Shown: positions 21,085 to 39,831, numbered from the stretch's first letter. The stretch is 64,000 nucleotides of DNA from Actinomycetota bacterium (GCA_009886115.1 VFJJ01000105.1:1891-65890), one strand, 5' to 3'. Notes: a model not told the origin generated them from the letters alone. Translations and numbers: made by a program.

Positions 21085-22302
21085 TCAGCGAGATAGGCGG
21101 ACGGGGAGCACCTTCAAGGCGTTGTTGAGGTTCGACCGGACCCGTTTCGGATCGCCGATCAGCTCGACGGTCGGGAACGCGGCGAGCAGCTCCTCGAAGA
21201 ACACCCGTCCCTCGAGGCGGGCCAGGTGCACGCCCAGGCAGAAGTGGGTCGCGATCCCGAACGACAGGTGGGGATTGGGGCTCCGGCGGATGTCGAAGCG
21301 GTGCGGATCGGCGAACACCTCCTCGTCGCGGTTCGCCGACGTGTAATACATCGCGACCTTGTCGCCCGCCGCGATGGGCACGCCTCGCAGCACGGTGTCG
21401 ACCAGGGCCGTGCGGCGGAAGTAGTGCAACGGGTTGGCCCAGCGGAGGATCTCCTCGACGGCACCGTCGATCAGCGACCGGTCGGCGCGCAGCTCGGCCA
21501 TCTGCTCGGGATGCTGGAGCAGCGCCAGGAGCCCGCCCGCGAGCATGGTCTTGGTCGTGTCGTTCCCCGCGGTGACGAGCTGCACGAAGAACGAGCCGAA
21601 CTCGAGGTCGGTCATCTGGCGACCGTTGAACTCGCCGTCGAGCAGCAACGTGGAGAGGTCTTCCCGGGGCGGCTCCGACCGGCGCCGCGCCGCCCACGCC
21701 ATGCCGTACATGACCATCTGCATCGAGCCGTCACCGCTGGTGTAGTTGTCGCCCTCGGGATTGATGTCGGCGTCCTGGCTCGACGTGTTCATCTCGGCCA
21801 TGCGGTGGATCGCTGCCCAATCCTCCCTCGGGAGGCCCATGAGCTCACCGATCACCTGCGATGGCAGGCTCGAGGTGACATCGTGCACGAACTCGACATC
21901 GCCCATCTCAGCGGCCCGGGCGAAGATCTCACGGCAGATCGTGCGGATGCGATCTTCCATCTGCCCGATGACCCTAACCTTGAAGCTCGGCGCGAGCGGC
22001 CGCCGGAAACCCGTGTGTCGGGGCGGGTCCATGGCCAGGAGCATGTTGCGCATGCCCTCGAGCTGCTCGGGGCCGAGGTTCTCGAGCACCACCCCGGCCT
22101 CGTTCGCCGAGAAGATCTCCGAGTGCTTGGCCACGTGCACCACGTCGGCGTGCTTGAGCACCGCCCAGTAGCCGGGCTCGTGCGGCATGTCCTGCCAGAA
22201 CACCGGTTGCTCACGTCGGAGCCGCTCGAAGAGCGCATGGGGCGGCTCGTCGATGTAGATGTCGGGCTCGTAGATTCCCGTCGGAACCGCGGTGGTGCTC
22301 AT
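21085..22302 (-). CDS. Cytochrome P450 monooxygenase
   Basis: The protein has a heme-binding loop FGIATHFCLGVHLA (FxxGxHxCxG), an I-helix VTAGNDTT and an ExxR (EEILRW). Confidence 0.9.
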   Translation of the reverse strand: MSTTAVPTGIYEPDIYIDEPPHALFERLRREQPVFWQDMPHEPGYWAVLKHADVVHVAKHSEIFSANEAGVVLENLGPEQLEGMRNMLLAMDPPRHTGFRRPLAPSFKVRVIGQMEDRIRTICREIFARAAEMGDVEFVHDVTSSLPSQVIGELMGLPREDWAAIHRMAEMNTSSQDADINPEGDNYTSGDGSMQMVMYGMAWAARRRSEPPREDLSTLLLDGEFNGRQMTDLEFGSFFVQLVTAGNDTTKTMLAGGLLALLQHPEQMAELRADRSLIDGAVEEILRWANPLHYFRRTALVDTVLRGVPIAAGDKVAMYYTSANRDEEVFADPHRFDIRRSPNPHLSFGIATHFCLGVHLARLEGRVFFEELLAAFPTVELIGDPKRVRSNLNNALKVLPVRLSR

Positions 22303-22341
22303 GCCGACCTCCTGTGGTCACTTGCTAGCACGCCACAGCTC

Positions 22342-22389
22342 CAACTGTCAGCGTGGCACCCCGTATCCGGGGTGCCACGCTGACAGTTG
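22342..22389. repeat. 48-nt palindromic element, copy 1 (perfect 22-bp arms, TATC loop)
   Basis: The sequence is CAACTGTCAGCGTGGCACCCCG-TATC-CGGGGTGCCACGCTGACAGTTG. It is intergenic, between the P450 start and the DUF202 gene end. Confidence 0.9.
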
Positions 22390-22404
22390 CGGTGATCGTC
22401 GACA

Positions 22405-22779
22405 TCAACGGGTGAGCTCCACAGCGATGACGCCCAGGCACACCACGGTGGTGAACCAGGCCATCGCCCGCAGCACCCCGCCCCGCACCCTGACGGGTTC
22501 ATCGGCTCTGATCGCGGCCATGGTGCGCCGGTACTCGGAAGTCCCCCCGGCCCAGCTCAGCGCGCCCACCATCAGCATCGCGAAGCCGATGGCGGTGCTG
22601 GGCCGGAGGAAGCCGTCGTCGGCGAAGTACCTCACCGTCGCCGCCCCCGCTCCACCCCACGACAGCGCCGTGCGGTTCCACGCCAGGTGCACCCGCTCCG
22701 CAGCCAGGCTCCCGAGCACGTCGGGATGGTGCCCAGCCCAGCCACTCGCGGCGCCGTCCATGGGGTCGTACACCGTCAC
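22405..22779 (-). CDS. DUF202 (YidH/YidG-like) small membrane protein
   Basis: An ERVHLAWNRTALSW motif is followed by TM helices. A GTGA overlap joins it to the upstream DUF202 gene (alternative ATG start at 22761). Confidence 0.7.
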   Translation of the reverse strand: MTVYDPMDGAASGWAGHHPDVLGSLAAERVHLAWNRTALSWGGAGAATVRYFADDGFLRPSTAIGFAMLMVGALSWAGGTSEYRRTMAAIRADEPVRVRGGVLRAMAWFTTVVCLGVIAVELTR

Positions 22780-23189
22780 ACCAGGCTGTAGACGACGGCG
22801 GCCACGGCGACCACCGCGGTGACGACCGACACGAGCATCGGCAGCCGCGAGTGACGGATCGGCTCCTGCAGGCGCATGGCCCGCTCGTTGCTCTCCCATG
22901 TGGAATAGCTGAAGAACGCCAGGAGCGCACCGAGCGCCATGAGCGACACGCCGACGACCTTGGGTCCGGTCTGGCTCCCGTCGGGCTTGAGGACGTGCGT
23001 GACGGCGAGGCCGGCGACGATGCACCCGAGGGCCGTGCGGTTCCACGCGAGGAAGGTCCGCTCATTGGCAAAGCTGAAGCGGGCGTCGGGCGCCTCACCC
23101 ACCTCGTCGAAGCGAGGACGTCGAGCGAGCCGTCCACGGCTTGCACCGGCCGACCCGGGGGGCTCGGAGCGACCGTCGACCGTCGCCAC
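22776..23189 (-). CDS. DUF202 (YidH-like) membrane protein
   Basis: A NERTFLAWNRTALG motif is followed by three hydrophobic helices. Confidence 0.75.
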   Translation of the reverse strand: MATVDGRSEPPGSAGASRGRLARRPRFDEVGEAPDARFSFANERTFLAWNRTALGCIVAGLAVTHVLKPDGSQTGPKVVGVSLMALGALLAFFSYSTWESNERAMRLQEPIRHSRLPMLVSVVTAVVAVAAVVYSLV

Positions 23190-23192
23190 CGC

Positions 23193-23747
23193 CTACAGGT
23201 CCCGGTAGATGTCGTCGACCGGAATGCTGATCCCGGCGCAGGGGACGAGCACCACCTCGCCCGAGCCGAGGATCGACGAGACCCATCGCTCGCCCATCCG
23301 CTCGTGCACCTCGAGGCGCGGGTGGTCGGGATCGACGATGACGTACATGCCCAGCGTTGGTATCGAGAGGTAAGCCCCGAGCTTCTCGCGACGATCGACC
23401 GTCTCCGTCGACGGCGAGAGCACTTCGACGAGCAGACACGGTCCTGTCTCGTAGCGCTCGTCGACGAGCGGCGCACACACCACCATCACGTCGGGGTAGT
23501 AGAACGCCCACGAGCCCGCAGTTGCGCCAACGCGGAGCTTGGCTCCCTCCACGTACGGACGACAACCCGACGCGAGCGCGGAGCCCCGAACCGCGCTGTA
23601 GATGGCACCAGCCACGAGATTGTGCCGAAGCGTTGCTCCGGTCATCGCACACAGCACGCCGCCCACGAGCTCATGCCGGACCGCGCTCTCGGCCTCGAGC
23701 CTCAGGTACTCGTCAGCCGTGACGTGAAGGGGAGCGGCGAGGCTCAT
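23193..23747 (-). CDS. Uma2-family (DUF820) putative restriction-endonuclease-like protein
   Basis: The pattern ...TADEYLRLEAESAVRHELVGGVL.AMTGATLRHN...PDVMVVC...LLVEVLSPST...DRREKLGAYLSIPTLGMYVIVDP is a typical Uma2 PD-(D/E)xK arrangement. Confidence 0.8.
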   Translation of the reverse strand: MSLAAPLHVTADEYLRLEAESAVRHELVGGVLCAMTGATLRHNLVAGAIYSAVRGSALASGCRPYVEGAKLRVGATAGSWAFYYPDVMVVCAPLVDERYETGPCLLVEVLSPSTETVDRREKLGAYLSIPTLGMYVIVDPDHPRLEVHERMGERWVSSILGSGEVVLVPCAGISIPVDDIYRDL

Positions 23748-23804
23748 CCCCCCAAGCGTACCGCCCGTCTGCGGGCGTGACGGTGCCCTGGCCAGACGAC
23801 GAGC

Positions 23805-24722
23805 TCAGCCGGCATCGGCCAAGAGGTGCTTGGGGAACAGCTCGTCGAGCTCCTCGAGGGTGTAGGGCGGACGGGTCCGGTGGCCGCCCCCGTGGTAGTT
23901 CGTAGCGTCGACGTAGGAGGTCCACAGGCCCAGCTCGGTGCCCGCCGAGTGCACGACCTGACCGTTCACGGCCGCGGCAGCGTCGGTGCACAGCCAGGCC
24001 ACGACCGGGCCGATGTACTCAGGCGGCGGGGTGTTGATGTAGGCGTCCCAGCCGGCGTCGTCGATGACACCGTCGGCCCGCATCTGCTCGAAGGTGGCCC
24101 TGCTCACCGCGTGCAGGCGGGTGGCAGCGCCGGGTGCGAGGCAGTTGGCGGTGACGCCCGAGGGACCGTGCTCGTGCGCCAGGGCCTTGGTGAGGGAGAT
24201 GACCCCGCCCATGGCCGCGGCGAAGATGGGCTGGCCGAGCAGGCCGGTGGCCCCGAACGACGTGGTGGCGATGAACCGGCCCCAGCCTCGCTCGACCATG
24301 GCGGGAACGGCCGCCCGGGCCAACCAGAACTTCTGCGAGAGGAACAGGTCGAGAAACCGTTGGTACGACTGGTCATCGGCGTTCAGTGAGCCGTCGATGA
24401 TCGCCCCGGCACAGCCCACGACGATGTCGAGTTGGCCGTACGTGTCGACAGCCGTCTGTACGGCCCGCTCGCAGCCCGCCGAGCTGGCGACCGAGTCGTA
24501 GTTCGCGCTCGCCGTTCCCCCGGCGCCACGGATGTCGGCCACGGTGGCGTCGGCCGCTGCGCTCGTCGCTCCGGTCGCGAACTCGTCGGTGCCCAGGTCG
24601 TTGACCACCACCGACGCGCCGGCGGCTCCGATGGCGAGCGCGCAGGCCCGGCCGATCCCGTTCCCGGCACCGGTGACGAGCGCCACCCGTCCGGCCAGCC
24701 GTCCAGCATCTCGCTCAGCCAC
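23805..24722 (-). CDS. SDR-family oxidoreductase (MFE-2 dehydrogenase-like)
   Basis: The protein has GRVALVTGAGNGIGRA (Rossmann motif) and VVNDLG. Confidence 0.85.
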   Translation of the reverse strand: MAERDAGRLAGRVALVTGAGNGIGRACALAIGAAGASVVVNDLGTDEFATGATSAAADATVADIRGAGGTASANYDSVASSAGCERAVQTAVDTYGQLDIVVGCAGAIIDGSLNADDQSYQRFLDLFLSQKFWLARAAVPAMVERGWGRFIATTSFGATGLLGQPIFAAAMGGVISLTKALAHEHGPSGVTANCLAPGAATRLHAVSRATFEQMRADGVIDDAGWDAYINTPPPEYIGPVVAWLCTDAAAAVNGQVVHSAGTELGLWTSYVDATNYHGGGHRTRPPYTLEELDELFPKHLLADAG

Positions 24723-24794
24723 GCCACACCCCGTCGGTCGAATCCCGTCGAATGTCTCGGCCCCAACACGGCGCCGGCCGCAGCGTAGGCCGGC

Positions 24795-25844
24795 TCAGGA
24801 AGGGACGGCCCGGAGCCCAGCCAGCTCGGCCAGCATCTCATAGGAACGGACCCGGTCGGCGTGCGACGGCGTGATGGTGGTGACCATCAGCTCGTCGACA
24901 CGAGTCCGGAGCACAAGCTCGTCGAGCATGCGCTGCACGGTCGTCGGGCTGCCAACGACGCTGTTCGACGCCCGCGACTCGATGATCCGGAGGTCGTGCG
25001 CGGTGTACGGGTAGGCCGCCGCCTCCTCGGGCGTGGGGAACGGGCCCGGTCGGCCCTGGGCCAGCCGCAGGAAGGCCAGCCCTCCGGGTGCCGCCAGCCA
25101 GCGGGCGTGCTCGTCGGTTTCGGCGCAGAGCACCGAGACCCCGATCATCGCGTAGGGTTGATCGAGCACGTCGGACGGCCGGAACGCCTTGCGGTACAAG
25201 GCCAAAGCCGGCTCGGTGTTCTCGGACGCGAAGTGGTGCGCGAACGAGAACGGCAGCCCCAGCATCCCGGCGACCTGGGCGCTGTAGCCGCTCGAGCCGA
25301 GCAGCCACAGCTCCGGCTGGTGGCCGAGACCGGGAACGGCGGTGATCGCCTGCATGGGGTTGCCCGCCGGGAACACCCCCGAGAAGAAGCTCATGAGATC
25401 GCCGAGCTGCTCGGGGAAGTCGTCGGCGCTCATCGCGTCTGCCGTCCGCCGCAGGGCCCGGGCCGTGACCTGGTCGGTGCCGGGCGCCCGTCCGATGCCG
25501 AGGTCGATCCGGCCGGGGTGCAGCGCCTCCAACATCCCGAACTGCTCGGCGATCACGAGCGGGGCATGGTTGGGGAGCATGACCCCGCCGGCCCCGATGC
25601 GCATCCGCTCGGTCACCGACGCCAGGTGGCCGATCAGCACGGCCGGCGCCGAGCTGGCGATGCCCGGCATGTTGTGGTGCTCGGCCACCCAGTAGCGGTG
25701 ATATCCCAGCCGCTCGGTGCGCCGGGCCAGGTCGAGCGAGTTGCGCAGGGCCTGGCCCACTGTCGTGCCCGAGGTGACCGGAGCCAGATCGAGCACCGAG
25801 AGCACGACGGCGGACAGGGAGGCGGGGGAGGGTATCGAGGGCAT
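24795..25844 (-). CDS. LLM-class flavin-dependent oxidoreductase (luciferase-family group 1 type)
   Basis: The sequence LSVLDLAPV...[30 protein letters not shown] matches this LLM class. Confidence 0.85.
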
Positions 25845-25880
25845 CCGGGCGAGGCTACCGACCGCGCATCACGAGACCGG

Positions 25881-27065
25881 CTACAGGATCACGCCGGCTT
25901 CCTTGAGCTCCGAGATGCGGTCCCAGTCGTAGCCCCGTTCGAGCAGCACCTCCTCGGTGTGCTGACCGTGCTCGGGGCTGGCGAGCCGCGGGACCGACGG
26001 ACGGCCGTGGAAGTCGATCGGCGTCGTGAGCGTTCTCGCCGGGCCCTCGGCGTGCGGCGCCTCGACGAAGGCGCCGGCGGCGATGGCCTGCGGATCGTCG
26101 ACCACGTCGAACGGGCTGAGCACCGACTCCCACCACACGCCTTCCCGGTCGAAGACCTCGGCCCACTCCTCACGCGACGCTCTGGAGAAGATCTCGTCGA
26201 GCGCGCCGATCAGCCCGGCGGCGTTGCTGCGTCGCGACGCCAGCGACGAGTAGCGCTCGTCGTCGATCCACTCGGGACGGCCGACGGCGCGGGCCAGCGC
26301 CGGCCAGTGCCGGTCGGGCTGGAGACCCAACAGCCAGAACCATCTTCCGTCGCCGGCCCGGTAGCAGTTCATCACCGGGTTGGTCGTCGACCGCCGGCCC
26401 TGACCCATCGGGAAGGACGTACCCGTTCGTGCGATCGTGTTGAGGTCCTGGCCGATCGTGTACATCCCGGTGCGGAGCAGCGAGGTGGTGACGAGCTGGC
26501 CCCGGCCGGTCTGCGAGCGTTCGTAGAGCGCTGCGGCGATCCCCGCGGCCAGCATGGCGCCGGTGATGTGGTCGCCGAACGCGCCGCGCAGCACGGGCGG
26601 TTCACCACCCTCGAGCGTGTGGGCGGCGGCGACGCCCGATCGGGAGTAGAACGCGCCGATGTCGTAGCCCGGTCGATCACGTTCGTCGCCGTCGAGCCCG
26701 TAACCGGTCATGAGCCCGTACACCAGCCGGGGATGGGCGGCCAGCAGCGTCGGGTGATCGAATCCCCACCGTTCGAGCACCGGCCCGCGAACGTTCGTGA
26801 CGAGCACGTCGGCGTCGGCCAGGAACTCGGCGACGATCGCCCGTCCGGCCTCACCGTCGAGGTCGACGGCCACGCTGCGCTTGCCCCGGTTGTCGAGCTC
26901 GAAGGCCGCGTTGACCGGCATGATCCCGCCCGTGAGGATCCAACGGAACGGATCCCCGTCGAGCGACTCGATCTTGATGACGTCGGCGCCCCAGTCGGCG
27001 AGCATCATCGACGCCGAAGGCCCGGCGATCCAGGCCCCGATCTCGAGAACCCCGACGCCGGCCAT
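25881..27065 (-). CDS. Family III CoA-transferase (CaiB/BaiF)
   Basis: The sequence MAGVGVLEIGAWIAGPSASMMLADWGADVIKIESLDGDPFR is a canonical family III N-terminus. Alternative upstream starts are at 27119 and 27170. Confidence 0.85.
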   Translation of the reverse strand: MAGVGVLEIGAWIAGPSASMMLADWGADVIKIESLDGDPFRWILTGGIMPVNAAFELDNRGKRSVAVDLDGEAGRAIVAEFLADADVLVTNVRGPVLERWGFDHPTLLAAHPRLVYGLMTGYGLDGDERDRPGYDIGAFYSRSGVAAAHTLEGGEPPVLRGAFGDHITGAMLAAGIAAALYERSQTGRGQLVTTSLLRTGMYTIGQDLNTIARTGTSFPMGQGRRSTTNPVMNCYRAGDGRWFWLLGLQPDRHWPALARAVGRPEWIDDERYSSLASRRSNAAGLIGALDEIFSRASREEWAEVFDREGVWWESVLSPFDVVDDPQAIAAGAFVEAPHAEGPARTLTTPIDFHGRPSVPRLASPEHGQHTEEVLLERGYDWDRISELKEAGVIL

Positions 27066-27205
27066 GGGCCCGGGCCGCGGTGCCGGCCCCGGCTCCGACC
27101 CCGGCTGGGTGACGGCCATCAGGCGATCGGCTCGAGCAGCTCGAACAGCGGGCCGAGGCGCAGGGGTCATGGCCGCAACGTACCCGCTGACGCGAGCGCC
27201 CATCT

Positions 27206-27286
27206 CAACTGTCAGTGTCACGGGCCGGATACGGACCCCCACGCTGACAGTTGGAGGAATCGCACGCTGACAGTTGGAGGAATCGC
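27206..27286. repeat. 48-nt palindromic element, copy 2 (inverted orientation, GATA loop), plus a 23-nt x2 tandem duplication of its right end
   Basis: The element is CAACTGTCAGTGTCACGGGCCG-GATA-CGGACCCCCACGCTGACAGTTG (27206-27253). ACGCTGACAGTTGGAGGAATCGC occurs twice in tandem (27241-27263 and 27264-27286). It lies in the divergent region between the CoA-transferase and amidohydrolase genes. Confidence 0.9.
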
Positions 27287-27333
27287 GCGTGCATCGGTAG
27301 CGTCCAGCCAAGCGTTGGCGAGTTCGGGAGACG

Positions 27334-28896
27334 ATGAACGTGAGCCGTACGTTGGTCCTGGGGGATCCCGTGATCGCGCTCGACACTGCGTCGACGATTC
27401 CCGACGGCGCGGTCATCGTCGAGGGCTCCGAGATCGTCGAGGTCGGTCCCCGGGTCGAGCTCGAAGGGCACGGACCGTTCGACGCCGTGCTCGGTGGCCC
27501 GACCAGCATCGTCATGCCCGGCTTCGTGAACGGGCACTACCACACCGAGTGCTTCACCGGGCCGGGCCTGATCGGCACGATCTTCGAGCTCTCGAACCTG
27601 TTCCTCGGCACAGCACCGCGCGAGGCCGACGAGGAGATCTTCGGGCTCCTCGCCATGCACGGCCTGATCCAGGCGGCCAAGGGTGGGCAGACCTCCACGG
27701 TCGACGTGTTCTACGGCAAGCCCAGCCTCCCCCGCTTCGGCGCCGACGGGGTCTTGCGGGCCTACGAGCAGATCGGGCTGCGGACGGCGCTGGCCATGAG
27801 CCTGCGCGACCAGAACATCTACGCCCACGAGGACGATGCTCGTTTCCTCGCCCGGGTTCCCGCCAGCACCGCAGAGGAGATCCGACGGTCGCCGCTCGGC
27901 TACGCCTGGCCCGTCGACGACGTGTTCAGCGCCTACGACGGTCTCGTGAGCGACTGGGACGGGCGAGGCGACCGCTTCCGGCTGCTCCTGGCGCCCGATT
28001 GGACGCCCGCGGTGTCCGACGACCTGTTCCGGCGGGTACGCCGGGCCGCCACCGAGTACGCGACGGGCATCACCACCCACGTGCTCGAGACCCGCTCGGA
28101 GCTCCTGTGGAACCTCGAGACCTACGGAAAGCCTGCGGTGCAGCGGCTCCACGATCTCGGTGTGCTGGGCGACGACGTGAGCTTCAGCCACTTCGTCTGG
28201 GCCACCGACACCGATCTCGACATCTTCGTCGACTCCGGCGTGGTGGCCGTGAGCAACGTGGGGTCGAACCTGCGCTTGTCGTCGGGGATCGCCCGGGTCC
28301 GTGACATGCTCGCCCGGGGCGGCCGCGTGGCCTTCGGCACCGACGGGATCTCGGTCGGCGATCGCGAGGACTTCTTCACCGAGCTGCGCACCGCGCTGTT
28401 GCTCCAGCGCCAGCCCGACGTCGTCGACGACCACCGTCTCGACTCCGAGCAGGTGCTCCGCGCCGCCGGCACGAACGGGTCTCGGGCCCTGGGCATTCCG
28501 GGACGAGTCGGCCGTCTCGCTGCTGGCACCCACGCCGATCTGCTGGTGCTCGACACGAAGCGCCTGTTCTTCCCGCCCGGCCGGTACGCGGCAACGCCCG
28601 TCCTCGACGTGATCGTCGATCGGGCCCACGCCGACGACATCACCACCGTGATGGTTCACGGGCAGGTCGTCGTCGACCGGGGCCGGGTGCTCACCGTCGA
28701 CGAGGACACGGTCGTCGACCGCATCAACGAGCTCTCGGAGCGGCTGTACGCGGTGACGCCCGAGAGCACCCGCTGGTTGGAGCTGGCGATCGAGCTGTGG
28801 CCGCACGCCCGGTCGATCTACGAGCGCTGGTACGGAATGCCCGTCGAGCAGCCCGCGTCGATCTACAACACGCGCACGCCGCCCCGGATCGGCTGA
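27334..28896 (+). CDS. Amidohydrolase-family protein (chlorohydrolase / aminohydrolase type)
   Basis: The protein has MPGFVNGHYHTE (HxH metal site), ...THVLET... and ...FGTDG... (C-terminal Asp ligand region). Confidence 0.85.
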   Translation: MNVSRTLVLGDPVIALDTASTIPDGAVIVEGSEIVEVGPRVELEGHGPFDAVLGGPTSIVMPGFVNGHYHTECFTGPGLIGTIFELSNLFLGTAPREADEEIFGLLAMHGLIQAAKGGQTSTVDVFYGKPSLPRFGADGVLRAYEQIGLRTALAMSLRDQNIYAHEDDARFLARVPASTAEEIRRSPLGYAWPVDDVFSAYDGLVSDWDGRGDRFRLLLAPDWTPAVSDDLFRRVRRAATEYATGITTHVLETRSELLWNLETYGKPAVQRLHDLGVLGDDVSFSHFVWATDTDLDIFVDSGVVAVSNVGSNLRLSSGIARVRDMLARGGRVAFGTDGISVGDREDFFTELRTALLLQRQPDVVDDHRLDSEQVLRAAGTNGSRALGIPGRVGRLAAGTHADLLVLDTKRLFFPPGRYAATPVLDVIVDRAHADDITTVMVHGQVVVDRGRVLTVDEDTVVDRINELSERLYAVTPESTRWLELAIELWPHARSIYERWYGMPVEQPASIYNTRTPPRIG

Positions 28897-29912
28897 TGGC
28901 CGACGTCGCGGCGAGCCCGGCCCGGTCGCAGGGCCCGGGGACGGAGGCATCGGCCCTCATACCCGGGCGCGCCACGGAGATGCCCGTCGAGCAGCGTTAC
29001 CCGCTCGATCTCGTGAGCCGACTCGGAGACGTGAGGCAGCTCTACCTCGACGCCTCGGCCGATCGCTGGGATCCCGAGACCGACATCGACCTGTCGGGTC
29101 TCGGCTCTGAGGCAACCGAGGTTCAACGCGCAGCGGGGGCCCTGGTCTGGAGCCACAGGGCCTGGCTCGAGTACCGGGGGATCGGCGAGAGCGAAGCGGC
29201 GCTGGTGAGGATGTGCCTGGAACGCGATCGCGAGGTCGACATCAAGTACCTCCTCACCGCGAGAGGTACCGCCAAGGCCTTGGCTACCGAGGCCTGTTGG
29301 ATGGTCGCCGAGCACCTCGGGGGCTACCTCGAGACGCCTGGTTCGCCCGTGCTGGCTGGGCTGCTGCGCGATCGTGTCGCGCGGCGGGGCCTGCACGCCG
29401 ACGTCGATCCCGACGCGTTCGTCGTGGCGCACTTCGTGCTGGGCGACACGATCGACCTGGCGCTGTGGCGCGCCGCGCTCGACGCTGCGGGCACGGGCCG
29501 ACACGATGGCGTGCGGGGCCTGATCGCACGGTTGGTCACGGCCAAGACCCGCCACGCGGCGTTCGGCTGGGCCTACGCCGAGGCTCGCCTCCCCCGGCTC
29601 GACCTCGACCAGCGAGCGGCCGTCGAGGCCAACCTCACGGCCGCGCTGGCACGGGAGCGAGGTGGCCTGAGGGTCGTGGCCGGCCTGGCCGATCGGGGGC
29701 GAGATCGGTTCACCGATGATCTGGTGGCTGCGGTCGACAGCACGGCCGCCGCCGGGCTGGGCGGCGCCGACAACACCCGGATGGCTGGCGCGCTCGACGA
29801 GGCGGTCGACGAGGTACGGTCGGGCTTGGCCCGGCTCGGGATCTCGCTCATCGAGCCGGCAACGCCGTCACCGACAAGACCGGGTATGGATCCGATTCAG
29901 GGGCCCTCGTGA
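28896..29912 (+). CDS. Ferritin-like four-helix-bundle protein, degenerate paralog of the next gene (metal ligands largely lost)
   Basis: It aligns by eye with the downstream protein (..RAWLEYRGIGESEA.. vs ..RAWGEYGAISESPA..; ..AEHLGGYLE.. vs ..ADLLGGYLPE..; ..RHAAFGWAY.. vs ..RHCEFGWEY..). The positions of both ExxH motifs read AKALA and AKTRH. There is a TGATG junction with the amidohydrolase gene. Confidence 0.6.
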   Translation: MADVAASPARSQGPGTEASALIPGRATEMPVEQRYPLDLVSRLGDVRQLYLDASADRWDPETDIDLSGLGSEATEVQRAAGALVWSHRAWLEYRGIGESEAALVRMCLERDREVDIKYLLTARGTAKALATEACWMVAEHLGGYLETPGSPVLAGLLRDRVARRGLHADVDPDAFVVAHFVLGDTIDLALWRAALDAAGTGRHDGVRGLIARLVTAKTRHAAFGWAYAEARLPRLDLDQRAAVEANLTAALARERGGLRVVAGLADRGRDRFTDDLVAAVDSTAAAGLGGADNTRMAGALDEAVDEVRSGLARLGISLIEPATPSPTRPGMDPIQGPS

Positions 29913-30898
29913 GCAGCATCCTCGATCGAGACGACCGTGCGTTCCCCCTTCGGCTGGGGCCGACCCTGCCCGCGGTGCGCACGCTCTACCGTCGGGCCAA
30001 GCGCCTGGCGTGGGACCCGATGCTCTCGATCCCGTGGGACCAGTTCGACCCGACCCGCTACTCGGCCGAGGTCCGCGAAGCCGGGCGGCTCTACTACTCG
30101 GGAAGGGCCTGGGGCGAGTACGGCGCGATCTCCGAGAGCCCGGCCATGCAGTTGCGCTACGACCTCGACGACCTCGAGCCCGATCTGAGCCTGTTCTGGG
30201 CGTTGCGCACCCAGGAGGAGGCGCGCCATGCCGAGGTGAGCGCCCACATGGCCGACCTGCTCGGCGGCTATCTCCCCGAGCCCCCGCCGCCCCCCGCGCC
30301 GCCGGCCCCGGCGGCGACCGCTCCCGTCTCTCCGGCTGCGACGCCGGCCCCGGTCGTCGCCGCGACCGCCCTCGACGAAGCCCCGCCGGCCACCGGGCCG
30401 TACCTGGGAACGCGGGCCCGGGCGCTGGCGGCCGACATCCCCGTCGAGGCCACCATCGCCGGCCTCGTGTGCGTGGCCGAGACGGTCGTCTACGACGTCT
30501 TCGTGGCGCTCATCCGTGAGCTGCGCGACCCGGTGGCCAAGGAGATCTTCCGCCACATCCTGCGCGACGAGATTCGCCACTGCGAGTTCGGCTGGGAGTA
30601 CCTCACGCATCGCCGCGCCCACCTCACGCCCGAGGTGATCGACGCCTGCCGAACGGCGATGATCTCGATGATCCGCGACGTCGAGCTCGGCGGCTATCGC
30701 AGCCCGTGGTTGCGGGCCGATCCCGACGAGGAAGCCGTCCGACTCGAGCGCATCGTCTTCGAGGCCGGCCTCGGCGGCGTCACCCCCGAGTGGGAGGGCC
30801 CGGTGCTCATGGCATCGATCGCCGGGGTGCGCGAACGAGCGTCCGGCCTCGGCATCGACATCCCGATCTTCCACCATCACCTGCTCGGGACGGTGTGA
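29909..30898 (+). CDS. Ferritin-like diiron-carboxylate protein (putative oxygenase/oxidase)
   Basis: The ligand pattern E...EEARH (nt 30215-30229) ... E ... DEIRH (nt 30566-30580) gives E/ExxH/E/ExxH. A Pro/Ala-rich insertion (PEPPPPPAPPAPAATAPVSPAATPAP) is present. There is a GTGA overlap with the upstream paralog. Confidence 0.7.
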   Translation: MSSILDRDDRAFPLRLGPTLPAVRTLYRRAKRLAWDPMLSIPWDQFDPTRYSAEVREAGRLYYSGRAWGEYGAISESPAMQLRYDLDDLEPDLSLFWALRTQEEARHAEVSAHMADLLGGYLPEPPPPPAPPAPAATAPVSPAATPAPVVAATALDEAPPATGPYLGTRARALAADIPVEATIAGLVCVAETVVYDVFVALIRELRDPVAKEIFRHILRDEIRHCEFGWEYLTHRRAHLTPEVIDACRTAMISMIRDVELGGYRSPWLRADPDEEAVRLERIVFEAGLGGVTPEWEGPVLMASIAGVRERASGLGIDIPIFHHHLLGTV

Positions 30899-30903
30899 GG
30901 GCC

Positions 30904-30951
30904 CAACTGCCAGCGTGGGTACCGGTATCCCGGTAGCCACGGTGACAGTTG
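30904..30951. repeat. 48-nt palindromic element, copy 3 (TATC loop, 19/22 arm pairing)
   Basis: The sequence is CAACTGCCAGCGTGGGTACCGG-TATC-CCGGTAGCCACGGTGACAGTTG. It lies between the convergent ferritin-like and Rieske genes. Confidence 0.85.
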
Positions 30952-30967
30952 CGGGGGTCAGGCCACA

Positions 30968-31948
30968 TCAGCCGGTGGCGAGCTCGCGGAGCATGCGACG
31001 GTAGGCCAGGCTGGCCTTGTCAGCGGGGACGTGCGCACCGGCGTCGGGCGACAGATCGAGCGAGGGATCGTCGATGCGCTCGAGCATCCACAGGTCTTCG
31101 TCGAGCACGACGTCGGTGAACGCGACCTCGCGTTCGAGGGCGAGCGGATCGTCGCCGGCATTGGTGGCGATCAGTTGGTACACGCGGCTCGATCCGTTGC
31201 GCTCGGGTTGGATCGTCTGGAACCAGGCGAGGATCCGGCCGTCGGGCATGTCGACGCGCAGCCACGCCGTGAACGGCGCCGCGCAGATCGAGTGGTGTGG
31301 CGCAACGCTGCCCGGGGCGTCGGAGACCGCCGCCTCGAAGCGGATGTCGACGATGTGGGCCTGCCGATCGACCGAGATCGCCTCGGGTCGCGGCTGGCCG
31401 TAGCTGTACCCGAACGACTTGGCGTGTACGAACGGCAGATGCGAGAAGTCGAAGTTGTTCTCCATGAGCTGCGGTGCGCCGATGTGGGCTTCCCGCACTC
31501 GCAGTGCAGCCCCCTGGAAGCCCTCGGCCGTCCATTCGGGAAAGTCGAGCACGGGGGTGCGGGGCGCCTCGGGGGCGATCCACACGATGCCGTGGGCCTC
31601 GCACACGTGCGGCGTGGAAGCGGTCGAGCGGATCCCGGCCGCCGGTGCTGCACCGACCGACGGCGCGAGCACACACGCCCCGGTCGCGTCGTAACACCAG
31701 CCGTGGTAGCCGCACTGCAGCACGGGTCCCCCGTCGTCGGGAAGCTCGATCACCGAACCGACGGACAAGCGCGCGCCCCGATGGGGGCACCGATCGTGGT
31801 ACGCCGCCACCTGATCACCCAGCCGGACCACCGCATAGGCGTGCCCGAGCAGCATCACCCTCGTCGGCGTGTCGCCGATCTCGACGGACAGCGCAACCGG
31901 ATGCCAGAACGATCGGAGCCACGGGCTCTCGTTGTCGACGTGTGCCAT
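30968..31948 (-). CDS. Rieske [2Fe-2S] non-heme-iron oxygenase, alpha-subunit type (VanA/KshA-like, single component)
   Basis: The Rieske motif is CPHRGARLS...CGYHGWCYD. The downstream catalytic domain has NNFDFSHLPFVH. Confidence 0.85.
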   Translation of the reverse strand: MAHVDNESPWLRSFWHPVALSVEIGDTPTRVMLLGHAYAVVRLGDQVAAYHDRCPHRGARLSVGSVIELPDDGGPVLQCGYHGWCYDATGACVLAPSVGAAPAAGIRSTASTPHVCEAHGIVWIAPEAPRTPVLDFPEWTAEGFQGAALRVREAHIGAPQLMENNFDFSHLPFVHAKSFGYSYGQPRPEAISVDRQAHIVDIRFEAAVSDAPGSVAPHHSICAAPFTAWLRVDMPDGRILAWFQTIQPERNGSSRVYQLIATNAGDDPLALEREVAFTDVVLDEDLWMLERIDDPSLDLSPDAGAHVPADKASLAYRRMLRELATG

Positions 31949-31966
31949 GGATGCGAATGTATTTCG

Positions 31967-32593
31967 TCAGGGCGAGCGATGCATCCGTACGAGCACGTTC
32001 GCCACCAATTTCTCGAATTCCGACAGGGCCACGATCGGCGGGTCGACGTACGAGTGGACGGTGACCACACCAGCGAAATCGCCCACGTGCACGACGCTGA
32101 TCATCGTCGAACGGACGTCGCCATCGCGGCTGCGCTCCACGAAGCTGACCACGGCTGGGCTGTCGTTGACGGTCGTCAGACGCTGCATCCGATCGTCGGG
32201 CTGGCGTGAGCCGGTGAACGTCGCGACGCCGTCGAGGAGCGTGACCCGCTCGGCGAAATCGGCGACCGCCGCGCTCTCGTCGGCCCACTCATGGATCTGG
32301 CACTGCAGGTAGGCGGTCCCGTCGGCACGGAGGAAGCCGGACTGCGCGTTGGCCCAGCGAGCGCGCGTGAAGCCGGGAAGGTCACCCGACCCACAACCTC
32401 TCGAGAGGGTGACATCGAAGCCGACGTCGTCGGGCACGGTGGAAGGGCGCGAGACGAGGAGCGTGGCAACGACCTCTTCCGGCTCACCCTGATTGAGGAG
32501 CCAGAAGGCACCCGTCGTGGCGAGCACGACACTGGCGATGCTCGCCCCCACGGAGATCACCCGTCGAAACCGCGATGCCTGAGCCGGCGGCAT
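31967..32593 (-). CDS. Hypothetical membrane-anchored protein
   Basis: A 208-aa ORF with an N-terminal TM segment (VISVGASIASVVLATTGAFWLL) and no recognisable motif. The coding call rests on length and the absence of a competing supported frame. Confidence 0.55.
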   Translation of the reverse strand: MPPAQASRFRRVISVGASIASVVLATTGAFWLLNQGEPEEVVATLLVSRPSTVPDDVGFDVTLSRGCGSGDLPGFTRARWANAQSGFLRADGTAYLQCQIHEWADESAAVADFAERVTLLDGVATFTGSRQPDDRMQRLTTVNDSPAVVSFVERSRDGDVRSTMISVVHVGDFAGVVTVHSYVDPPIVALSEFEKLVANVLVRMHRSP

Positions 32594-32650
32594 GTGCGTA
32601 GTCTACGAACGGCACGGGGCCCGGGTCTCTCTGAACCTCAGGTGCACGCC

Positions 32651-33367
32651 ATGGGAGGAACCATGATCCCGTCTGAACTCCTCGAACGCATCGGGCGCCC
32701 CGAGGTCGAGCGATGGCGGCAGCACCCGTTCGTCAACGGTCTGACCGACGGGACGCTGCCGGTCGAGGCGTTTCGGTGGTATCTCCAGCAGGATTGGCTG
32801 TACCTGAAGAACTACGTGCGGGTCTACGCGCGCCTGGCCGGCATCGCTCCCGACGGTGCCATGGAGCATCTGGTGCACCTCGCCCACGAGCTCGTCACCA
32901 CCGAGCTCGGGCTGATCAGGACCATGATGGAGCCCTTCGCCGTCGACCTCGTGAGCATCGAGCCCACGCCGGTGAACCGTGCGTACCAGGAGTTCCTCCT
33001 CGATACCGCGTCGCGCGATTTCGCCGAGGGGGTCGCGGCGACCATGCCGTGCCTGTGGGGGTATTCGGTGCTGGGCCGGTCCATGCCCGAGCCCCCGGTC
33101 GACGGTTCGCACCCGTACGAGTCGTGGGTCGCGGTGTATCGGGCCGACTCGATGCGTGCCAACACCGACCTGCTCCTCGGGCTCCTCGACGATGCAGCCC
33201 GCGTCGCACCGGGCACCGATCCCGCTGCGATCGAGAAGGCGTTCAGGCGGGCCTTCGAGCTCGAGTGGCTCTTCTGGGACAACCCGCATCTGCGTGCGTC
33301 GGCCACGCGCTTGGCGTGCAGCGAGGAAGCAGACAGGACAAGTTCATCCCCCCGAAATAAGATCTGA
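32651..33367 (+). CDS. tenA: TenA/thiaminase II family protein (aminopyrimidine aminohydrolase-like)
   Basis: The pattern HPFVNGLTDGTLPVEAFRWYLQQDWLYLKNYVRVYA...NRAYQEFLL...MPCLWGYS...ELEWLFWD is TenA-like. The real start lies inside a longer track ORF. Confidence 0.8.
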   Translation: MGGTMIPSELLERIGRPEVERWRQHPFVNGLTDGTLPVEAFRWYLQQDWLYLKNYVRVYARLAGIAPDGAMEHLVHLAHELVTTELGLIRTMMEPFAVDLVSIEPTPVNRAYQEFLLDTASRDFAEGVAATMPCLWGYSVLGRSMPEPPVDGSHPYESWVAVYRADSMRANTDLLLGLLDDAARVAPGTDPAAIEKAFRRAFELEWLFWDNPHLRASATRLACSEEADRTSSSPRNKI

Positions 33368-33412
33368 TGCACAATGTCTGGTGTCTCGACTCTGAGAGTG
33401 GGAGGACGAGGG

Positions 33413-34732
33413 ATGCAGCCCCAACCTGACGGTGCCGGCAACCAAACCCTCAAGGCGCGCCACGCGAGGGTGATCCCGCACTGGGTCGACCAGATGTACG
33501 CCGAGCCGCTGGAGCTCGTCTCGGGGCAGGGCGTCATGGTGACCGACGCCAACGGCGTCGAGTACCTCGACTTCTTCGCCGGGCTGGCGACCACGGCGAC
33601 GGGCCACAACCTCCCCGAGCTCGTCGAAGCGGTGACCGCGCAGTTGGGCAAGATCATCCACTCGTCGACGCTGTACCTCATACGCCCCATGGTCGAGCTG
33701 GCCGAGCTCCTGGTGTCGCTCACGCCGCCCATGCAGGAGAAGGCGTTCTTCGTGAACTCCGGCACCGAGGCCGTCGATGCGGCGCTGCTCGTGGCCACCA
33801 GCTTCCGCCGCTCGCACCAGATCATCGCCATGCGTCACAGCTACCACGGACGGTCGTTCAGCGCGGTGGCGGTCACCGGCAACCGCGGCTACTCCGCGAC
33901 GAACCTCACGCCGTTCAACGTGCAGTACGCCCCGTACGCCTACTGCTACCGCTGCCCGTTCCATCTCACGTACCCGAGCTGCGATGTCGCCTGTGCCCGC
34001 GATCTCGACACGGTCATCAAGACCCAGACGGCGGGCGACATCGCCGCACTCATCATCGAGCCCATCCAGGGCGTCAACGGGTTCGTCACACCGCCGCCGG
34101 AGTTCTTCCCGATCATCCGCGAGATCTGCGATCGCCACGGCATCCTGCTGATCTCGGACGAGATCCAGACCGGGTTCGGCCGCACTGGCGAGGCGCTGTG
34201 GGGCATCGAGGCCGACGGCGTCGATGCCGACCTGATGGTCATGGCCAAGGGACTCGGCAACGGCATACCCATCGCCGCCGTGCTCGGCCGGGCCGACGTG
34301 ATGGACTCGCTCACGGCCGGCTCGATCAGCACCTTCGGTGGCAACCACCTGGCCTCGACGGCGGCCCTGGCCAACGTGAACTACATCGCGGGGCACGACC
34401 TCGTCGGCAACGCCGCCAAGCAGGGAGCCACGATCCGCGAGGCCCTCCTCGGGCTGCAGCGCCGGTACCCCGATGCCATCGGCGACGTTCGGGGCAAGGG
34501 CCTCATGCAGGCGATCGAGCTGGCCGACGCCGACGTTCACCGCACCCCCCGGGCCGATCTCGCCGCCCAGATCCAGGAGGCGTGCCGCGAGCGCGGACTG
34601 CTCGTGGGCAAGGGCGGTATCGACTGGAACGTCATCCGGTTGGCCCCGCCGCTCGTCGTCGACGACAGCCACGTCGGCGAGGCCCTCCGCATCCTCAGTG
34701 AGGCGTGCACGCATGTGTTGGCGGGGCCATGA
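33413..34732 (+). CDS. Class III (omega) aminotransferase, PLP-dependent
   Basis: Motifs present are FVNSGTEAVDAAL, ISDEIQTGFGRTG and MVMAKGLGNG (PLP Lys). GGAGGA sits 8 nt upstream of ATG 33413. Confidence 0.85.
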   Translation: MQPQPDGAGNQTLKARHARVIPHWVDQMYAEPLELVSGQGVMVTDANGVEYLDFFAGLATTATGHNLPELVEAVTAQLGKIIHSSTLYLIRPMVELAELLVSLTPPMQEKAFFVNSGTEAVDAALLVATSFRRSHQIIAMRHSYHGRSFSAVAVTGNRGYSATNLTPFNVQYAPYAYCYRCPFHLTYPSCDVACARDLDTVIKTQTAGDIAALIIEPIQGVNGFVTPPPEFFPIIREICDRHGILLISDEIQTGFGRTGEALWGIEADGVDADLMVMAKGLGNGIPIAAVLGRADVMDSLTAGSISTFGGNHLASTAALANVNYIAGHDLVGNAAKQGATIREALLGLQRRYPDAIGDVRGKGLMQAIELADADVHRTPRADLAAQIQEACRERGLLVGKGGIDWNVIRLAPPLVVDDSHVGEALRILSEACTHVLAGP

Positions 34733-34778
34733 CCGGGCAGCGCCAGGACCGGGTGGGGGCCGTGACCAGGTGGGGCCC

Positions 34779-35765
34779 GTGACCGGGGCCCGTCGTTCCG
34801 CCAGCCGCCTGTCCGCCGTCGGCAACGTGCTCGATCGGTGTCTCGCCGTGCGCCACGGCGAGGAGGTCGTGCTCCTCACCGACGACGGAACCGATCCCCT
34901 CGTCGTCGACGGCCTGATCGAGGCCCTGATCGAACGCCGTGCCGTGCCGGTCGTGGCCCGGATTCCGCGACCTGTGCTCCCGGGAGAGGAGCCGCCCCGC
35001 TCGGTCGCCGCGCTGATGTGCGACGCCGCCGCGGTGATCGAGCTCACCTCGTTGTTCATCGGCTCGAACCAGGCTCGCCGACGGGCCAACGCTGCTGGCG
35101 TGCGCTATCTGGCCATGCCGGGCGTTCGCGCCTCCACGTTCCGGGCCGAGGGGCCGCTGGCCGTCGACTTCGACGCCATCCGAGTCACGGCCGAGCGGGT
35201 CGGTGCCGCCTGGACGGCCGCGACGACCTTCCGCCTCACCACCCCGGCCGGTACCGATCTCGTCGGCTCGGTGTCGGGACGGCCCGGTCGCGTGTTGCAC
35301 GGCGTGTGCCGAGGCGCCGGTGACTACATGGCGCCGCCCGACATCGAGGCCGGCACCGCGCCGGTCGAGGGAACGGGCTCGGGCACCGTGGTGGTCGATG
35401 CCGACCTGCTGTTCATGGGCGTCGGCCCGCTGCCCGAGCCGGTGGTGCTCGAGTTCCGCGACGGGCTGCTCGTTGCGGCCGAGGGCGCCGAAGCCGGCCG
35501 ACTCACCGACATGATCGAGCGGTGTGCCGACGATCGCATGCACAACCTGGCCGAGGTGTCGCTGGGGTTGAACCCGGCGGGCCGGGTGTGCGACGTGGCC
35601 ATGGAGACCGAGTCATCGCTCGGCAGCGCGCACATCGCGCTGGGGAATTCGATCGCCTATGGGGGCATCGTCGACGCCCGGGCCCATCTCGACGCTGTGA
35701 TGCGAGATGCGACCCTGGTGCTCGACGGGCGCCCGGTGCTCGAATGCGGAAGGCTGTTGGTATGA
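34779..35765 (+). CDS. Aminopeptidase T (M29)/NicX-like family protein
   Basis: The roughly 328-aa protein ...EEVVLLTDDGTDP...APPDIEAGTAPVEGTGSGTVVVD...SLGSAHIALGNS... resembles the AmpS/NicX fold pattern. The family assignment is by eye only. The start is uncertain (GTG 34770 or 34779). Confidence 0.55.
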   Translation: MTGARRSASRLSAVGNVLDRCLAVRHGEEVVLLTDDGTDPLVVDGLIEALIERRAVPVVARIPRPVLPGEEPPRSVAALMCDAAAVIELTSLFIGSNQARRRANAAGVRYLAMPGVRASTFRAEGPLAVDFDAIRVTAERVGAAWTAATTFRLTTPAGTDLVGSVSGRPGRVLHGVCRGAGDYMAPPDIEAGTAPVEGTGSGTVVVDADLLFMGVGPLPEPVVLEFRDGLLVAAEGAEAGRLTDMIERCADDRMHNLAEVSLGLNPAGRVCDVAMETESSLGSAHIALGNSIAYGGIVDARAHLDAVMRDATLVLDGRPVLECGRLLV

Positions 35766-35796
35766 ACCCCAAGGGGAAAAGAGAGAGGGAACAGAC

Positions 35797-36966
35797 ATGA
35801 CACGAACATTCCGAGGAAGGTGGTTCGTCGGACTCCTGGCAGCCCTGGCGCTCGTCGCCGCGGCTTGTGGGGACGATGACGACGACACCGTTGCCAGTTC
35901 CGACACGACCGCAGCACCGGCCGCGGGGGGCGACACCACGGCGCCCGCAGCCGCTGGAGGCGAGACCACGGCGCCCGCAGCCGCTGGAGGCGGGATCGCC
36001 GCCGGACCGTGCGCCGACACGCCGGCGGCGACCGAGCTGACCACCGTCAAGCTCCAGCTCGACTGGACGCCCAACACCAACCACACCGGGTTCTTCGTGG
36101 CCGATGCGCTCGGGTGCTACGCCCAAGCGGGGATCGAGCTCGAGATCCTGCCGTACAGCGGTGGGAACGCCGATGAGATCGTGGCCTCGGGCCAGGCCGA
36201 CTTCGGCGTCTCGTTCCACAACTCGATCAGCCTGGCCGGACCGGCCGGGGTGCCGATCGTGGGCGTGGCGGCGATCCTCCAGAAGACCGCCGAGGCCATC
36301 GCGGTCAAGGCCGATCGTGACGAGATCGCGTCGCCCAAGGACCTCGACGGGCTCACCTACGCCGGCTTCGGCGGCCCGCAGGAGGTCCCGGTGCTGACCG
36401 CGATCATCCAAGCCGACGGGGGTGAAGGCGAATTCGAGGTGGTCACATTGAACACCTCGGCCTACGAGGCCGTCTACAACGGCGACGCCGACTTCACAAT
36501 CCCCTTCACCCTGTGGGAAGGGATCGAGGCCACGCTGAACAACGAGCCGGTCAAGTACTTCGAGTACTCCGACTACGGCCTGCCCAACCAGTACTCCGTG
36601 ATGCTCGTCACGTCACAGGACAACATCGCGGGCAAGGCCGACCTGGTCAAGAGCTTCCTGGCTGCCAGCCAGAAGGGTTGGGACTACGCAGCCGCCAACC
36701 CGCAGGAGGCCGGCCAGATCCTCCTCGACGCCAACCCCAGCGAGCTGACCAACACCGAGCTGGTGCTGCAGAGCGCCCAGGCCATGGCCGATGGCGGGTA
36801 CCTCCTCGGCCCAGGAGGCCACTGGGGCGAGATCGACCCGGCCATCTTCTCTGGCTACTCCCAGTTCCTGTTCGAGGCCGGGATCATCAGTGACGCCGAC
36901 GGCAACCCGCTCGACGCCGCACCCGACTGGACCCAGTACATCAACACCACGTTGCTCCCAGCCTGA
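35797..36966 (+). CDS. NMT1/THI5-like ABC substrate-binding lipoprotein (ThiY-type pyrimidine-precursor binding protein candidate)
   Basis: A lipobox LVAAACG is followed by a Thr/Ala/Gly linker with a 30-nt x2 repeat, then VKLQLDWTPNTNHTGFFVA, which is the THI5/NMT1 signature. A purine-rich RBS precedes ATG 35797. Confidence 0.8.
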   Translation: MTRTFRGRWFVGLLAALALVAAACGDDDDDTVASSDTTAAPAAGGDTTAPAAAGGETTAPAAAGGGIAAGPCADTPAATELTTVKLQLDWTPNTNHTGFFVADALGCYAQAGIELEILPYSGGNADEIVASGQADFGVSFHNSISLAGPAGVPIVGVAAILQKTAEAIAVKADRDEIASPKDLDGLTYAGFGGPQEVPVLTAIIQADGGEGEFEVVTLNTSAYEAVYNGDADFTIPFTLWEGIEATLNNEPVKYFEYSDYGLPNQYSVMLVTSQDNIAGKADLVKSFLAASQKGWDYAAANPQEAGQILLDANPSELTNTELVLQSAQAMADGGYLLGPGGHWGEIDPAIFSGYSQFLFEAGIISDADGNPLDAAPDWTQYINTTLLPA

Positions 36967-37050
36967 CCGACCGGGGTGGAGCCGGGTCGCTGATGCGGCC
37001 CGGCTCCACCGCCCACCCGTTCCCACCAACTCCGCCCGGAGCCTGAACCC

Positions 37051-38010: not shown

Positions 38011-38013
38011 ACC

Positions 38014-39348: not shown

Positions 39349-39357
39349 GACCCCCAA

Positions 39358-39408
39358 CGTTCTTTGTGGCTGCCCCCGCGCCAGGAGCGACGTGGGACGC
39401 AAAGAACG
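39358..39408 (+). repeat. 51-nt AT-stem hairpin element A (upstream of the ykoF-like gene)
   Basis: The element is CGTTCTTTGTG-N27-GACGCAAAGAACG. The 11-bp stem has one U.G wobble that is only valid in + strand RNA. Confidence 0.8.
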
Positions 39409-39431
39409 CATGACACAGGAGCGAGGTTCCC

Positions 39432-39728: not shown

Positions 39729-39773
39729 GCGCCTTCGCCGGTCGCCGCGTCTGACCTGAGAGCACACCCCGGC

Positions 39774-39824
39774 CGTTCTTTGTGTCCAGGGCCGCTCCAT
39801 GCGCGGCGCGAGACGCAAAGAACG
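39774..39824 (+). repeat. 51-nt AT-stem hairpin element B (downstream of the ykoF-like gene)
   Basis: The element is CGTTCTTTGTGTC-N25-GACGCAAAGAACG, with the same arms and total length as element A. The 13-bp stem has the same U.G wobble position. Confidence 0.8.
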
Positions 39825-39831
39825 AGAAGGG

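Follow-up and report, generated by a model that had tools for sequence, protein, structure and literature searches.

A dispersed family of REP-like palindromes in Actinomycetota and its possible association with a winged-helix nuclease

Three palindromes of 48 nt lie between genes in a 64,000-nt stretch of an Actinomycetota genome (GCA_009886115.1, VFJJ01000105.1:1891-65890; this whole stretch is referred to as the window), and the question they raise is whether they serve the genes beside which they are found or are copies of an element that spreads through the chromosome. Most of what is understood about dispersed palindromic repeats comes from Proteobacteria, in which these repeats rely on a domesticated HUH transposase, and to our knowledge there is no equivalent in high-GC Gram-positive bacteria beyond the unexplained Tuberculosis Rho-independent terminator (TRIT) motif. 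It is argued here, with high confidence, that the three palindromes belong to a genuine dispersed family resembling the repetitive extragenic palindromic (REP) sequences and are not an operator set, canonical terminators, classical miniature inverted-repeat transposable elements (MITEs) or an attC array. The family is a new member of the bacterial dispersed palindromes. The wider reading, in which the three elements are non-coding copies of such a family with a nuclease partner and an effect on transcripts, is considered fairly probable.

The three palindromes were found where the preliminary description, made from the sequence of the window, had placed them, each with arms of 22 nt and a loop of 4 nt (Table 1), and the loops as well as the inverted orientation of copy 2 were as it had claimed. 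A covariance model (CM) built from 12 members of the 48-nt family recovers the three copies from the 64 kb with 66-78 bits (E 1e-18 to 1e-21), and there is no fourth copy in the 64 kb, the next-best match scoring 18.8 bits. As the chance expectation for an exact 15-mer in 64 kb is about 1e-4, three copies are far above chance. The outer 15 nt of each arm had been described as conserved, which holds for the first 10-13 nt, the truly invariant part of the family ends, but not for the remainder: the left arm of copy 2 has mismatches at 3 of its 15 outer positions (CAACTGTCAGTGTCA) and the right arm of copy 3 at 1 of 15. The conserved end is best written CAACTGYCAG(CG). The predicted RNA folds amount to -50.4 kcal/mol for copy 1 and about -39 kcal/mol for copies 2 and 3, with z-scores of -9.4, -3.3 and -4.3, respectively. 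At copy 2 a unit of 23 bp, in which the final 14 nt of the element are joined to 9 nt of flanking sequence, has been duplicated in tandem, which created an extra solo half-site at 27263-27276 and suggests slippage or an arm-level rearrangement of the element.

The changes in the inner stem had been taken as a sign of selection on a hairpin or cruciform, and this is borne out in alignments of 12 copies of the 48-nt family and 21 copies of a 50-nt class (see below). In the 48-nt family 90.9% of the alignment cells are paired compared to 30-40% in slid controls, and 18 cells carry a change on both sides compared to 7.8±2.0 in shuffles (0/500). The outer 13 bp show no variation among the 12 copies, and the double-sided changes are located at pairs 15, 17-19 and 21; about half of the copies have mispairs in columns 14/35 and 16/33, and the arms behave as two combinable "alleles", TGGS and TCAS. 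Since the inner stem of this family comes in about three types (GGTACC, GCRCCCC and RGGGCC), the independent compensatory events are few. The signal is far stronger in the 50-nt class, where 93.4% of the cells are paired, 16 of the 23 pairs have changed on both sides and 91 cells are double-sided compared to 24.7±4.0 in shuffles (0/500), the terminal 6 bp (CAACTG/CAGTTG) being the only invariant part. Three different inner stems coexist within one genome, and with several types per genome the inner sequence cannot be what a protein reads. Judged from the alignments, constraint acts on stem pairing plus the ends, and the family appears to be defined by invariant CAACTG…CAGTTG ends (CAACTGYCAGCG in the lineage of the window) along with an inner stem that varies while remaining paired.

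With one genome scanned per species, the family pattern was matched at 109 or more loci, chance matches included, and the copy counts outside the window are lower bounds. At least nine further copies of the 48-nt family are present on 8 contigs of the metagenome-assembled genome (MAG) JANLSK ("Actinomycetes bacterium"), which represents the lineage of the window, as one of its loci (L060) is syntenic with the window at 9.7-14.3 kb and carries orthologues of 87-94% amino-acid identity. The family is thus neither restricted to the three copies first noticed nor devoid of further covariation. At least 14 copies of a 50-nt sister family with a GTACC core were found in the Acidimicrobiia MAGs CAWAEN (9) and CBESNA (5); this family begins and ends with the same CAACTGCCAGCK as the 48-nt family, and the CAACTGYCAGCG ends are common to both. 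A 44-nt variant with the same 10-nt ends (CAACTGCCAGTAGTCGCGCGTATACG…) has two copies in JANLSK (L011:928-971 and L094:357-400). Both are located 0.5-1.7 kb from a copy of the 48-nt family, and in L011 a small cupin gene is bracketed by the 44-nt and the 48-nt palindrome.

That the element does not belong to a described repeat family, as had been supposed, agrees with all searches of existing collections. An Rfam scan at E<=10 returned spurious miRNA matches only, BLAST of the element consensus against plasmid and phage collections gave no match, a viral scan with the family pattern gave 0 matches and the 12-mers of the element match the published literature as primer coincidences only. A literature search on REP and RAYT (REP-associated tyrosine transposase) in Actinobacteria likewise found nothing. 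Three identical 48-nt matches (CAACTGTCA…TGACAGTTG) spaced by about 150 nt in a Segetibacter MAG (L051:2319-2668) were rejected as an unrelated low-GC Bacteroidota tandem repeat.

The candidate for a protein acting on such repeats comes from the sister family. In CAWAEN (L003:5867-6952) two copies of the 50-nt family, 1 kb apart, bracket a DUF559/MTES_1575 gene encoding a protein of 304 aa, the reading frame of which runs into the downstream palindrome, and the bracketing palindromes are of the family that is dispersed elsewhere in the same genome (7 dispersed loci). Homologues of this protein make up at least 861 clusters (90% identity) at E<=1e-10. When L003 and eight homologue loci (41-58% identity; L122-L127, L129 and L130) were examined, the gene was bracketed by two cognate palindromes in 9/9. 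In the eight further loci the brackets are two mutually similar palindromes of 48-63 nt, with the upstream one 13-76 nt before the start codon and the downstream one overlapping the stop codon or located at most 6 nt after it. The CAACTG…CAGTTG ends are found in the brackets of five of the nine loci, i.e., L003 and L122-L125, where the four latter have brackets of 50 nt that are otherwise genome-specific and match the model of the window family with E 2e-12 to 1e-4; L126, L127, L129 and L130 have different cognate palindromes. Among 25 aligned homologues MTES_1575 is recognized in all, DUF559 in 24 and an N-terminal AbiEi_4 winged helix-turn-helix (wHTH; PF13338) in 12, and the D, E and H residues at the putative catalytic positions do not vary. 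A PDB profile search with the nuclease family identified the endonuclease-like 3hrl (E 2e-6).

Two side observations concern these genes. Many of the DUF559 homologues are found on contigs of about 1.0-1.4 kb, as if the assemblies broke at the brackets. One bracket copy (L123:2938-2943) opens with CAGCTG, all other copies with CAACTG; the Vsr-like fold is that of a T:G mismatch endonuclease and CAGTTG/CAACTG would be the product of C-to-T deamination at the inner C of CAGCTG, but any link between the two would be pure speculation.

The AbiEi-DUF559 protein is proposed as the partner of the palindromes because in all nine loci its gene has palindromes on both sides, like RAYT genes with their REPs. 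The hairpin and its CAACTG ends would, with moderate confidence, be the substrate of a trans-acting protein, for which the wHTH-DUF559 nuclease is the best candidate. What matters would be the hairpin, whether formed in single-stranded DNA, as a cruciform or in RNA, together with the sequence-specific read-out of the 6-12-nt ends by a protein that combines an AbiEi-type winged helix with a DUF559/Vsr-like PD-(D/E)xK nuclease. It is conceivable that the wHTH binds the ends and that the nuclease nicks or cuts the extruded hairpin, and this may copy, maintain or homogenise the repeats and so disperse them around the chromosome. In transcribed copies the 22-bp GC-rich stem could serve as a passive 3'-end barrier, a decay barrier or a target of RNase III. 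In its most complete form the proposal is that of an undescribed REP/RAYT analogue in Actinomycetota, where a single-copy wHTH-DUF559 gene with cognate brackets has given rise to dispersed offspring including the three copies of the window, and this is put forward tentatively, as possible rather than probable. For the window's own lineage the link to the nuclease is inferred by analogy.

The REP and REPIN sequences of Proteobacteria and their RAYT (TnpA-REP) proteins, as they are reportedly organized, provide the closest parallel. Both systems consist of short extragenic repeats that form hairpins and are scattered along the chromosome, and in both the structure persists although the sequence is specific to a lineage. 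In each, one gene has a cognate repeat on either side (here in related genomes), and repeat and gene appear to co-diversify between genomes. On the other hand, the bracketed gene here encodes an AbiEi-wHTH plus DUF559 PD-(D/E)xK nuclease and not an HUH/Y1 transposase, the elements are near-perfect palindromes of 48-50 nt with CAACTG ends whereas REPs are imperfect palindromes of 20-40 nt with a 5' GTAG, the hosts are Actinomycetota, and no bracketed gene was seen for the 48-nt family of the window in 136 kb. The protein has other relatives as well. Like the AbiEi antitoxins of type IV toxin-antitoxin systems it has, in about half of the aligned homologues, an N-terminal winged helix, but there is no adjacent AbiEii nucleotidyltransferase toxin gene, the C-terminal domain is a nuclease, and the palindrome is also found downstream of the gene and, in some genomes, dispersed. 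The group I intron homing endonuclease 3r3p shares the nuclease fold, although the match is weak (E 0.08), and offers a precedent for a selfish mobile element; the gene discussed here differs in being free-standing and palindrome-bracketed rather than inside an intron, and in having an N-terminal AbiEi-type wHTH. If the partnership is real it would assign a role to a large and so far uncharacterised family of proteins, constitute a second, independent bacterial route to REP-like repeats and provide a candidate for the trans-acting factor suspected by the authors of the TRIT study (see below). Association with a nuclease in place of a RAYT would be a new variant of the REP-type system.

Several observations weigh against the preferred reading. 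First, all three copies in the window are clustered in 8.6 kb, which has a probability of about 0.05 under random placement, and the palindrome family is narrowly distributed; a metagenome scan for the 10-nt ends separated by a 28-nt gap gave 9 matches, all of them chance or unrelated low-GC sequences and none a true member. Second, the hairpins are not canonical terminators, as no T-tract follows the copies on either strand and a terminator scan of positions 22000-31300 flags 0/3 copies. Third, four of the bracketed genes occupy one syntenic position, with a glpD-like gene upstream and ilvN/ilvB downstream, and therefore point to vertical inheritance and not to mobility, and the two 21-kb loci L129 and L130 are without dispersed copies of their bracketing palindromes. 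AbiEi-type proteins control their own expression by binding inverted repeats in their promoter, and the bracketing may by analogy be no more than the operator and the terminator of the gene itself. Fourth, when 120 DUF559 homologues were used as tblastn queries, none was recovered from the window or the JANLSK loci (72 kb; 136 kb in total), and for this reason a nuclease partner of the 48-nt family is extrapolated from another class; a transposase or RAYT was not found in this DNA either. Further searches gave the same picture: the termini of the homologues, screened for peptides encoded by palindromes of the 48-nt family, contained none, a chimeric query with palindrome-encoded tails designed to find the partner gene of this family returned 14 fragments only, tblastn of the DUF559 protein against plasmids gave no match, and a literature search on DUF559 and palindromes or repeats found nothing relevant.

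Table 1. Positions of the palindromic elements of the window, of the duplication beside copy 2 and of the bracketed nuclease genes in related genomes
Feature	Position	Strand or orientation	Structure	CM score (bits)
Copy 1	window 22342-22389	loop TATC on + strand	perfect 48-nt palindrome, 22/22 paired	77.6
Copy 2	window 27206-27253	loop GATA on + strand; opposite orientation	48-nt palindrome, 17/22 paired	65.5 (minus strand)
Copy 3	window 30904-30951	loop TATC	48-nt palindrome, 19/22 paired	68.1
23-bp tandem duplication, second unit (CACGCTGACAGTTGGAGGAATCG)	window 27263-27285	+	first unit at 27240-27262	
Bracketed genes in L122-L127, L129 and L130	gene at 3001 or 10001		pair of cognate palindromes each	

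The reading that survives best beside the preferred one is that the palindromes are RNA elements selected where they stand, i.e., tail-less bidirectional terminators or 3'-end stabilisers like the TRIT, possibly recognized by a double-stranded RNA-binding factor and without any partner at the DNA level; it is considered unlikely. Copies in general almost always lie between genes; those of JANLSK and the window are all intergenic or at gene ends, and 11 of these 13 copies follow at least one stop codon at a distance of no more than 45 nt, with six between convergent, five between tandem and two between divergent genes. Such placement, and the very stable RNA hairpins predicted, are what this explanation would have one expect, although the post-stop placement is only a mild bias given how compact the genomes are. 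As for the TRIT itself, we know of no associated gene that has been described. About 147 palindromic TRIT copies, conserved and tied to stop codons, are present in Mycobacterium tuberculosis, and a trans-acting factor was suspected by the authors (PMC3152330). Compared by its description, the TRIT is likewise actinobacterial, conserved in sequence as well as structure and, being palindromic, bidirectional, but it has been reported from Mycobacterium only and mostly extends over the stop codon (around -8) whereas the copies here are found 5-44 nt downstream. Moreover, Term-seq mapping in M. tuberculosis gave 3' ends of which predicted hairpin terminators, TRITs included, each overlapped only 2-4% (bioRxiv 10.1101/2022.06.01.494293), which speaks against the RNA-element explanation and calls for caution with any effect on transcripts. 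The T-tract is missing at all three copies of the window, copy 2 and the copy in locus L084 are situated in divergent promoter regions, a relative is without the element at the site of copy 3 (see below) and the bracketing of the nuclease gene on both sides in 9/9 loci is left unexplained. Within the preferred reading an effect on transcripts, such as a 3'-end barrier, processing by RNase III or decoupling of convergent genes, is nevertheless plausible because of the strength of the predicted stems and their post-stop positions, and in operons like the catabolic cluster of the window the stems probably influence the 3' ends of mRNAs.

Gain and loss of copies bear on a further alternative, according to which the palindromes are MITEs derived from a conventional DDE insertion sequence and moved in trans by its transposase. 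A contig from the European Nucleotide Archive (L119; ERZ25039516 contig_32589) is colinear with the window at 27333-40370 with 74-82% nucleotide identity, and at the site of copy 3 it has an empty spacer of 26 nt where the window has 69 nt with the element, which indicates that copies are gained or lost between relatives. The MITE explanation accounts for this difference at an orthologous site, as well as for the conserved inverted termini and the dispersed intergenic copies. It is however improbable: the flanks of 27 copies show no target-site duplication and instead weakly continue the palindrome (ctc to the left, gag to the right), the whole element is a single uninterrupted palindrome around a 4-nt loop and lacks internal sequence, and phage and plasmid collections are without a match. 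Neither a transposase nor a RAYT is found in the 25 commonest Pfam families of each of two sets of proteins encoded near the outside copies (53 and 74; 127 in total) or, with respect to RAYT PF01797 and transposases, among the Pfam matches of the open reading frames (ORFs) of the window. The preliminary description was therefore right in reporting no transposase, RAYT or target duplication, and its comparison with "REP/MITE-like" elements stands for the REP-like dispersal but not for the MITE half. The Correia elements of Neisseria, which are MITEs, measure 100-150 bp, duplicate a TA target and contain internal sequence. The palindromes described here resemble them in having conserved inverted termini and a dispersed, intergenic location, and in that they can be co-transcribed into long hairpins that RNase III can process, but lack the duplication and the internal region. 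A resemblance to Tn3-type inverted repeats was also considered, since locus L097 shares GGGGTCTGACGCT with these, and rejected as the orientation is inside-out and other copies differ.

The colinearity of L119 with the window begins exactly at the intergenic region of copy 2, from the amidohydrolase gene onward, and L119 lacks the block that separates copies 1 and 2. GC-rich stems of 22 bp break short-read assemblies and mark synteny breakpoints. A contig of a close relative (L120, positions 1-49; Logan SRR20217213), the amidohydrolase of which is 91% identical, breaks off precisely where copy 2 with its duplication ends in the window, consistent with an assembly break at the repeat. Two other comparisons were set aside: L121 (amidohydrolase 80% identical) was, like L120, tried as an empty site for copy 2, but its upstream gene differs, and the element of L060 is located in an indel region of three genes and is uninformative with respect to insertion.

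The gene neighbourhood leaves little room for operators of one local transcription factor governing the catabolic cluster of the window. The GC content of the window is about 70%, as usual for actinobacteria, and a gene map supported by Pfam matches places all three copies between genes in the tandem, divergent and convergent contexts that had been reported. Copy 1 is intercistronic between tandem minus-strand genes, 15 nt past the stop codon of the second of two DUF202 genes and 39 nt ahead of the start codon of a P450 gene, an ATG with GGAGG in front of it. Copy 2 is situated between divergent genes for a CoA-transferase III (start at about 27170, minus strand) and an amidohydrolase (start at 27334, plus strand), and copy 3 between the convergent stop codons, at distances of 5 and 16 nt, of a DUF455-like gene (ending at 30898) and a Rieske/VanA oxygenase gene (ending at 30968). 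Together with genes for an SDR and a luciferase-like monooxygenase, the P450, CoA-transferase, amidohydrolase and Rieske oxygenase genes form the catabolic cluster. The concentration of three copies in 8.6 kb of metabolically coherent sequence, with none in the other 55 kb, and the position of copy 2 in a divergent promoter region, could be explained by a shared operator. This explanation is nonetheless very improbable: copy 3 is found between two stop codons and copy 1 directly after one, the inner half-sites vary between copies and co-vary within a copy, and there is no regulator gene among the 20 ORFs scanned around the copies. Outside the window the 127 neighbouring proteins are functionally diverse, including Ser/Thr kinases, ABC transporters, thiolase, adenosine deaminase, succinate dehydrogenase, ferrochelatase and amidohydrolases, and no protein family recurs more than three times, and because of this diversity, seen in JANLSK as copies beside unrelated genes, the operator reading is ruled out, in agreement with the preliminary description. 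Known operator and promoter motifs were rejected as well, i.e., a CsoR/RicR-type operator (TACCC-N-GGGTA core), since the contexts have nothing to do with copper and the inner stems are variable, and the PafBC/RecA-NDp promoter motif (TGTCRGTG), the -10 spacing of which does not fit. Least probable of all is an integron-type cassette system with the palindromes as attC-like recombination sites, for although single genes are bracketed by two elements (L011 and L003) and the ends with their flanks read YYCCAAC…GTTGGRR, partly like the attC consensus boxes RYYYAAC/GTTRRRY, only the AAC/GTT cores match while the purine and pyrimidine positions of the R box do not, the stems have no extrahelical (bulged) bases, no integrase was seen and the copies, instead of forming an array, are spread over many contigs with housekeeping genes around them.

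A few other features of the window are recorded here. Between copies 1 and 2 a Uma2-family (PF05685) putative restriction-endonuclease-like gene (23193-23747, minus strand) adjoins the two tandem DUF202 genes; it has no bracketing palindromes. Three palindromic structures are unrelated to the family and do not match its model. These are an imperfect palindrome with 25-nt arms at 10705-10759, a perfect 28-nt palindrome at 13420-13447 (GACGCTGGCCGCGG/CCGCGGCCAGCGTC) and a hairpin at 36975-37010, which has a 16-bp stem and a 4-nt loop and follows a gene ending at 36966.

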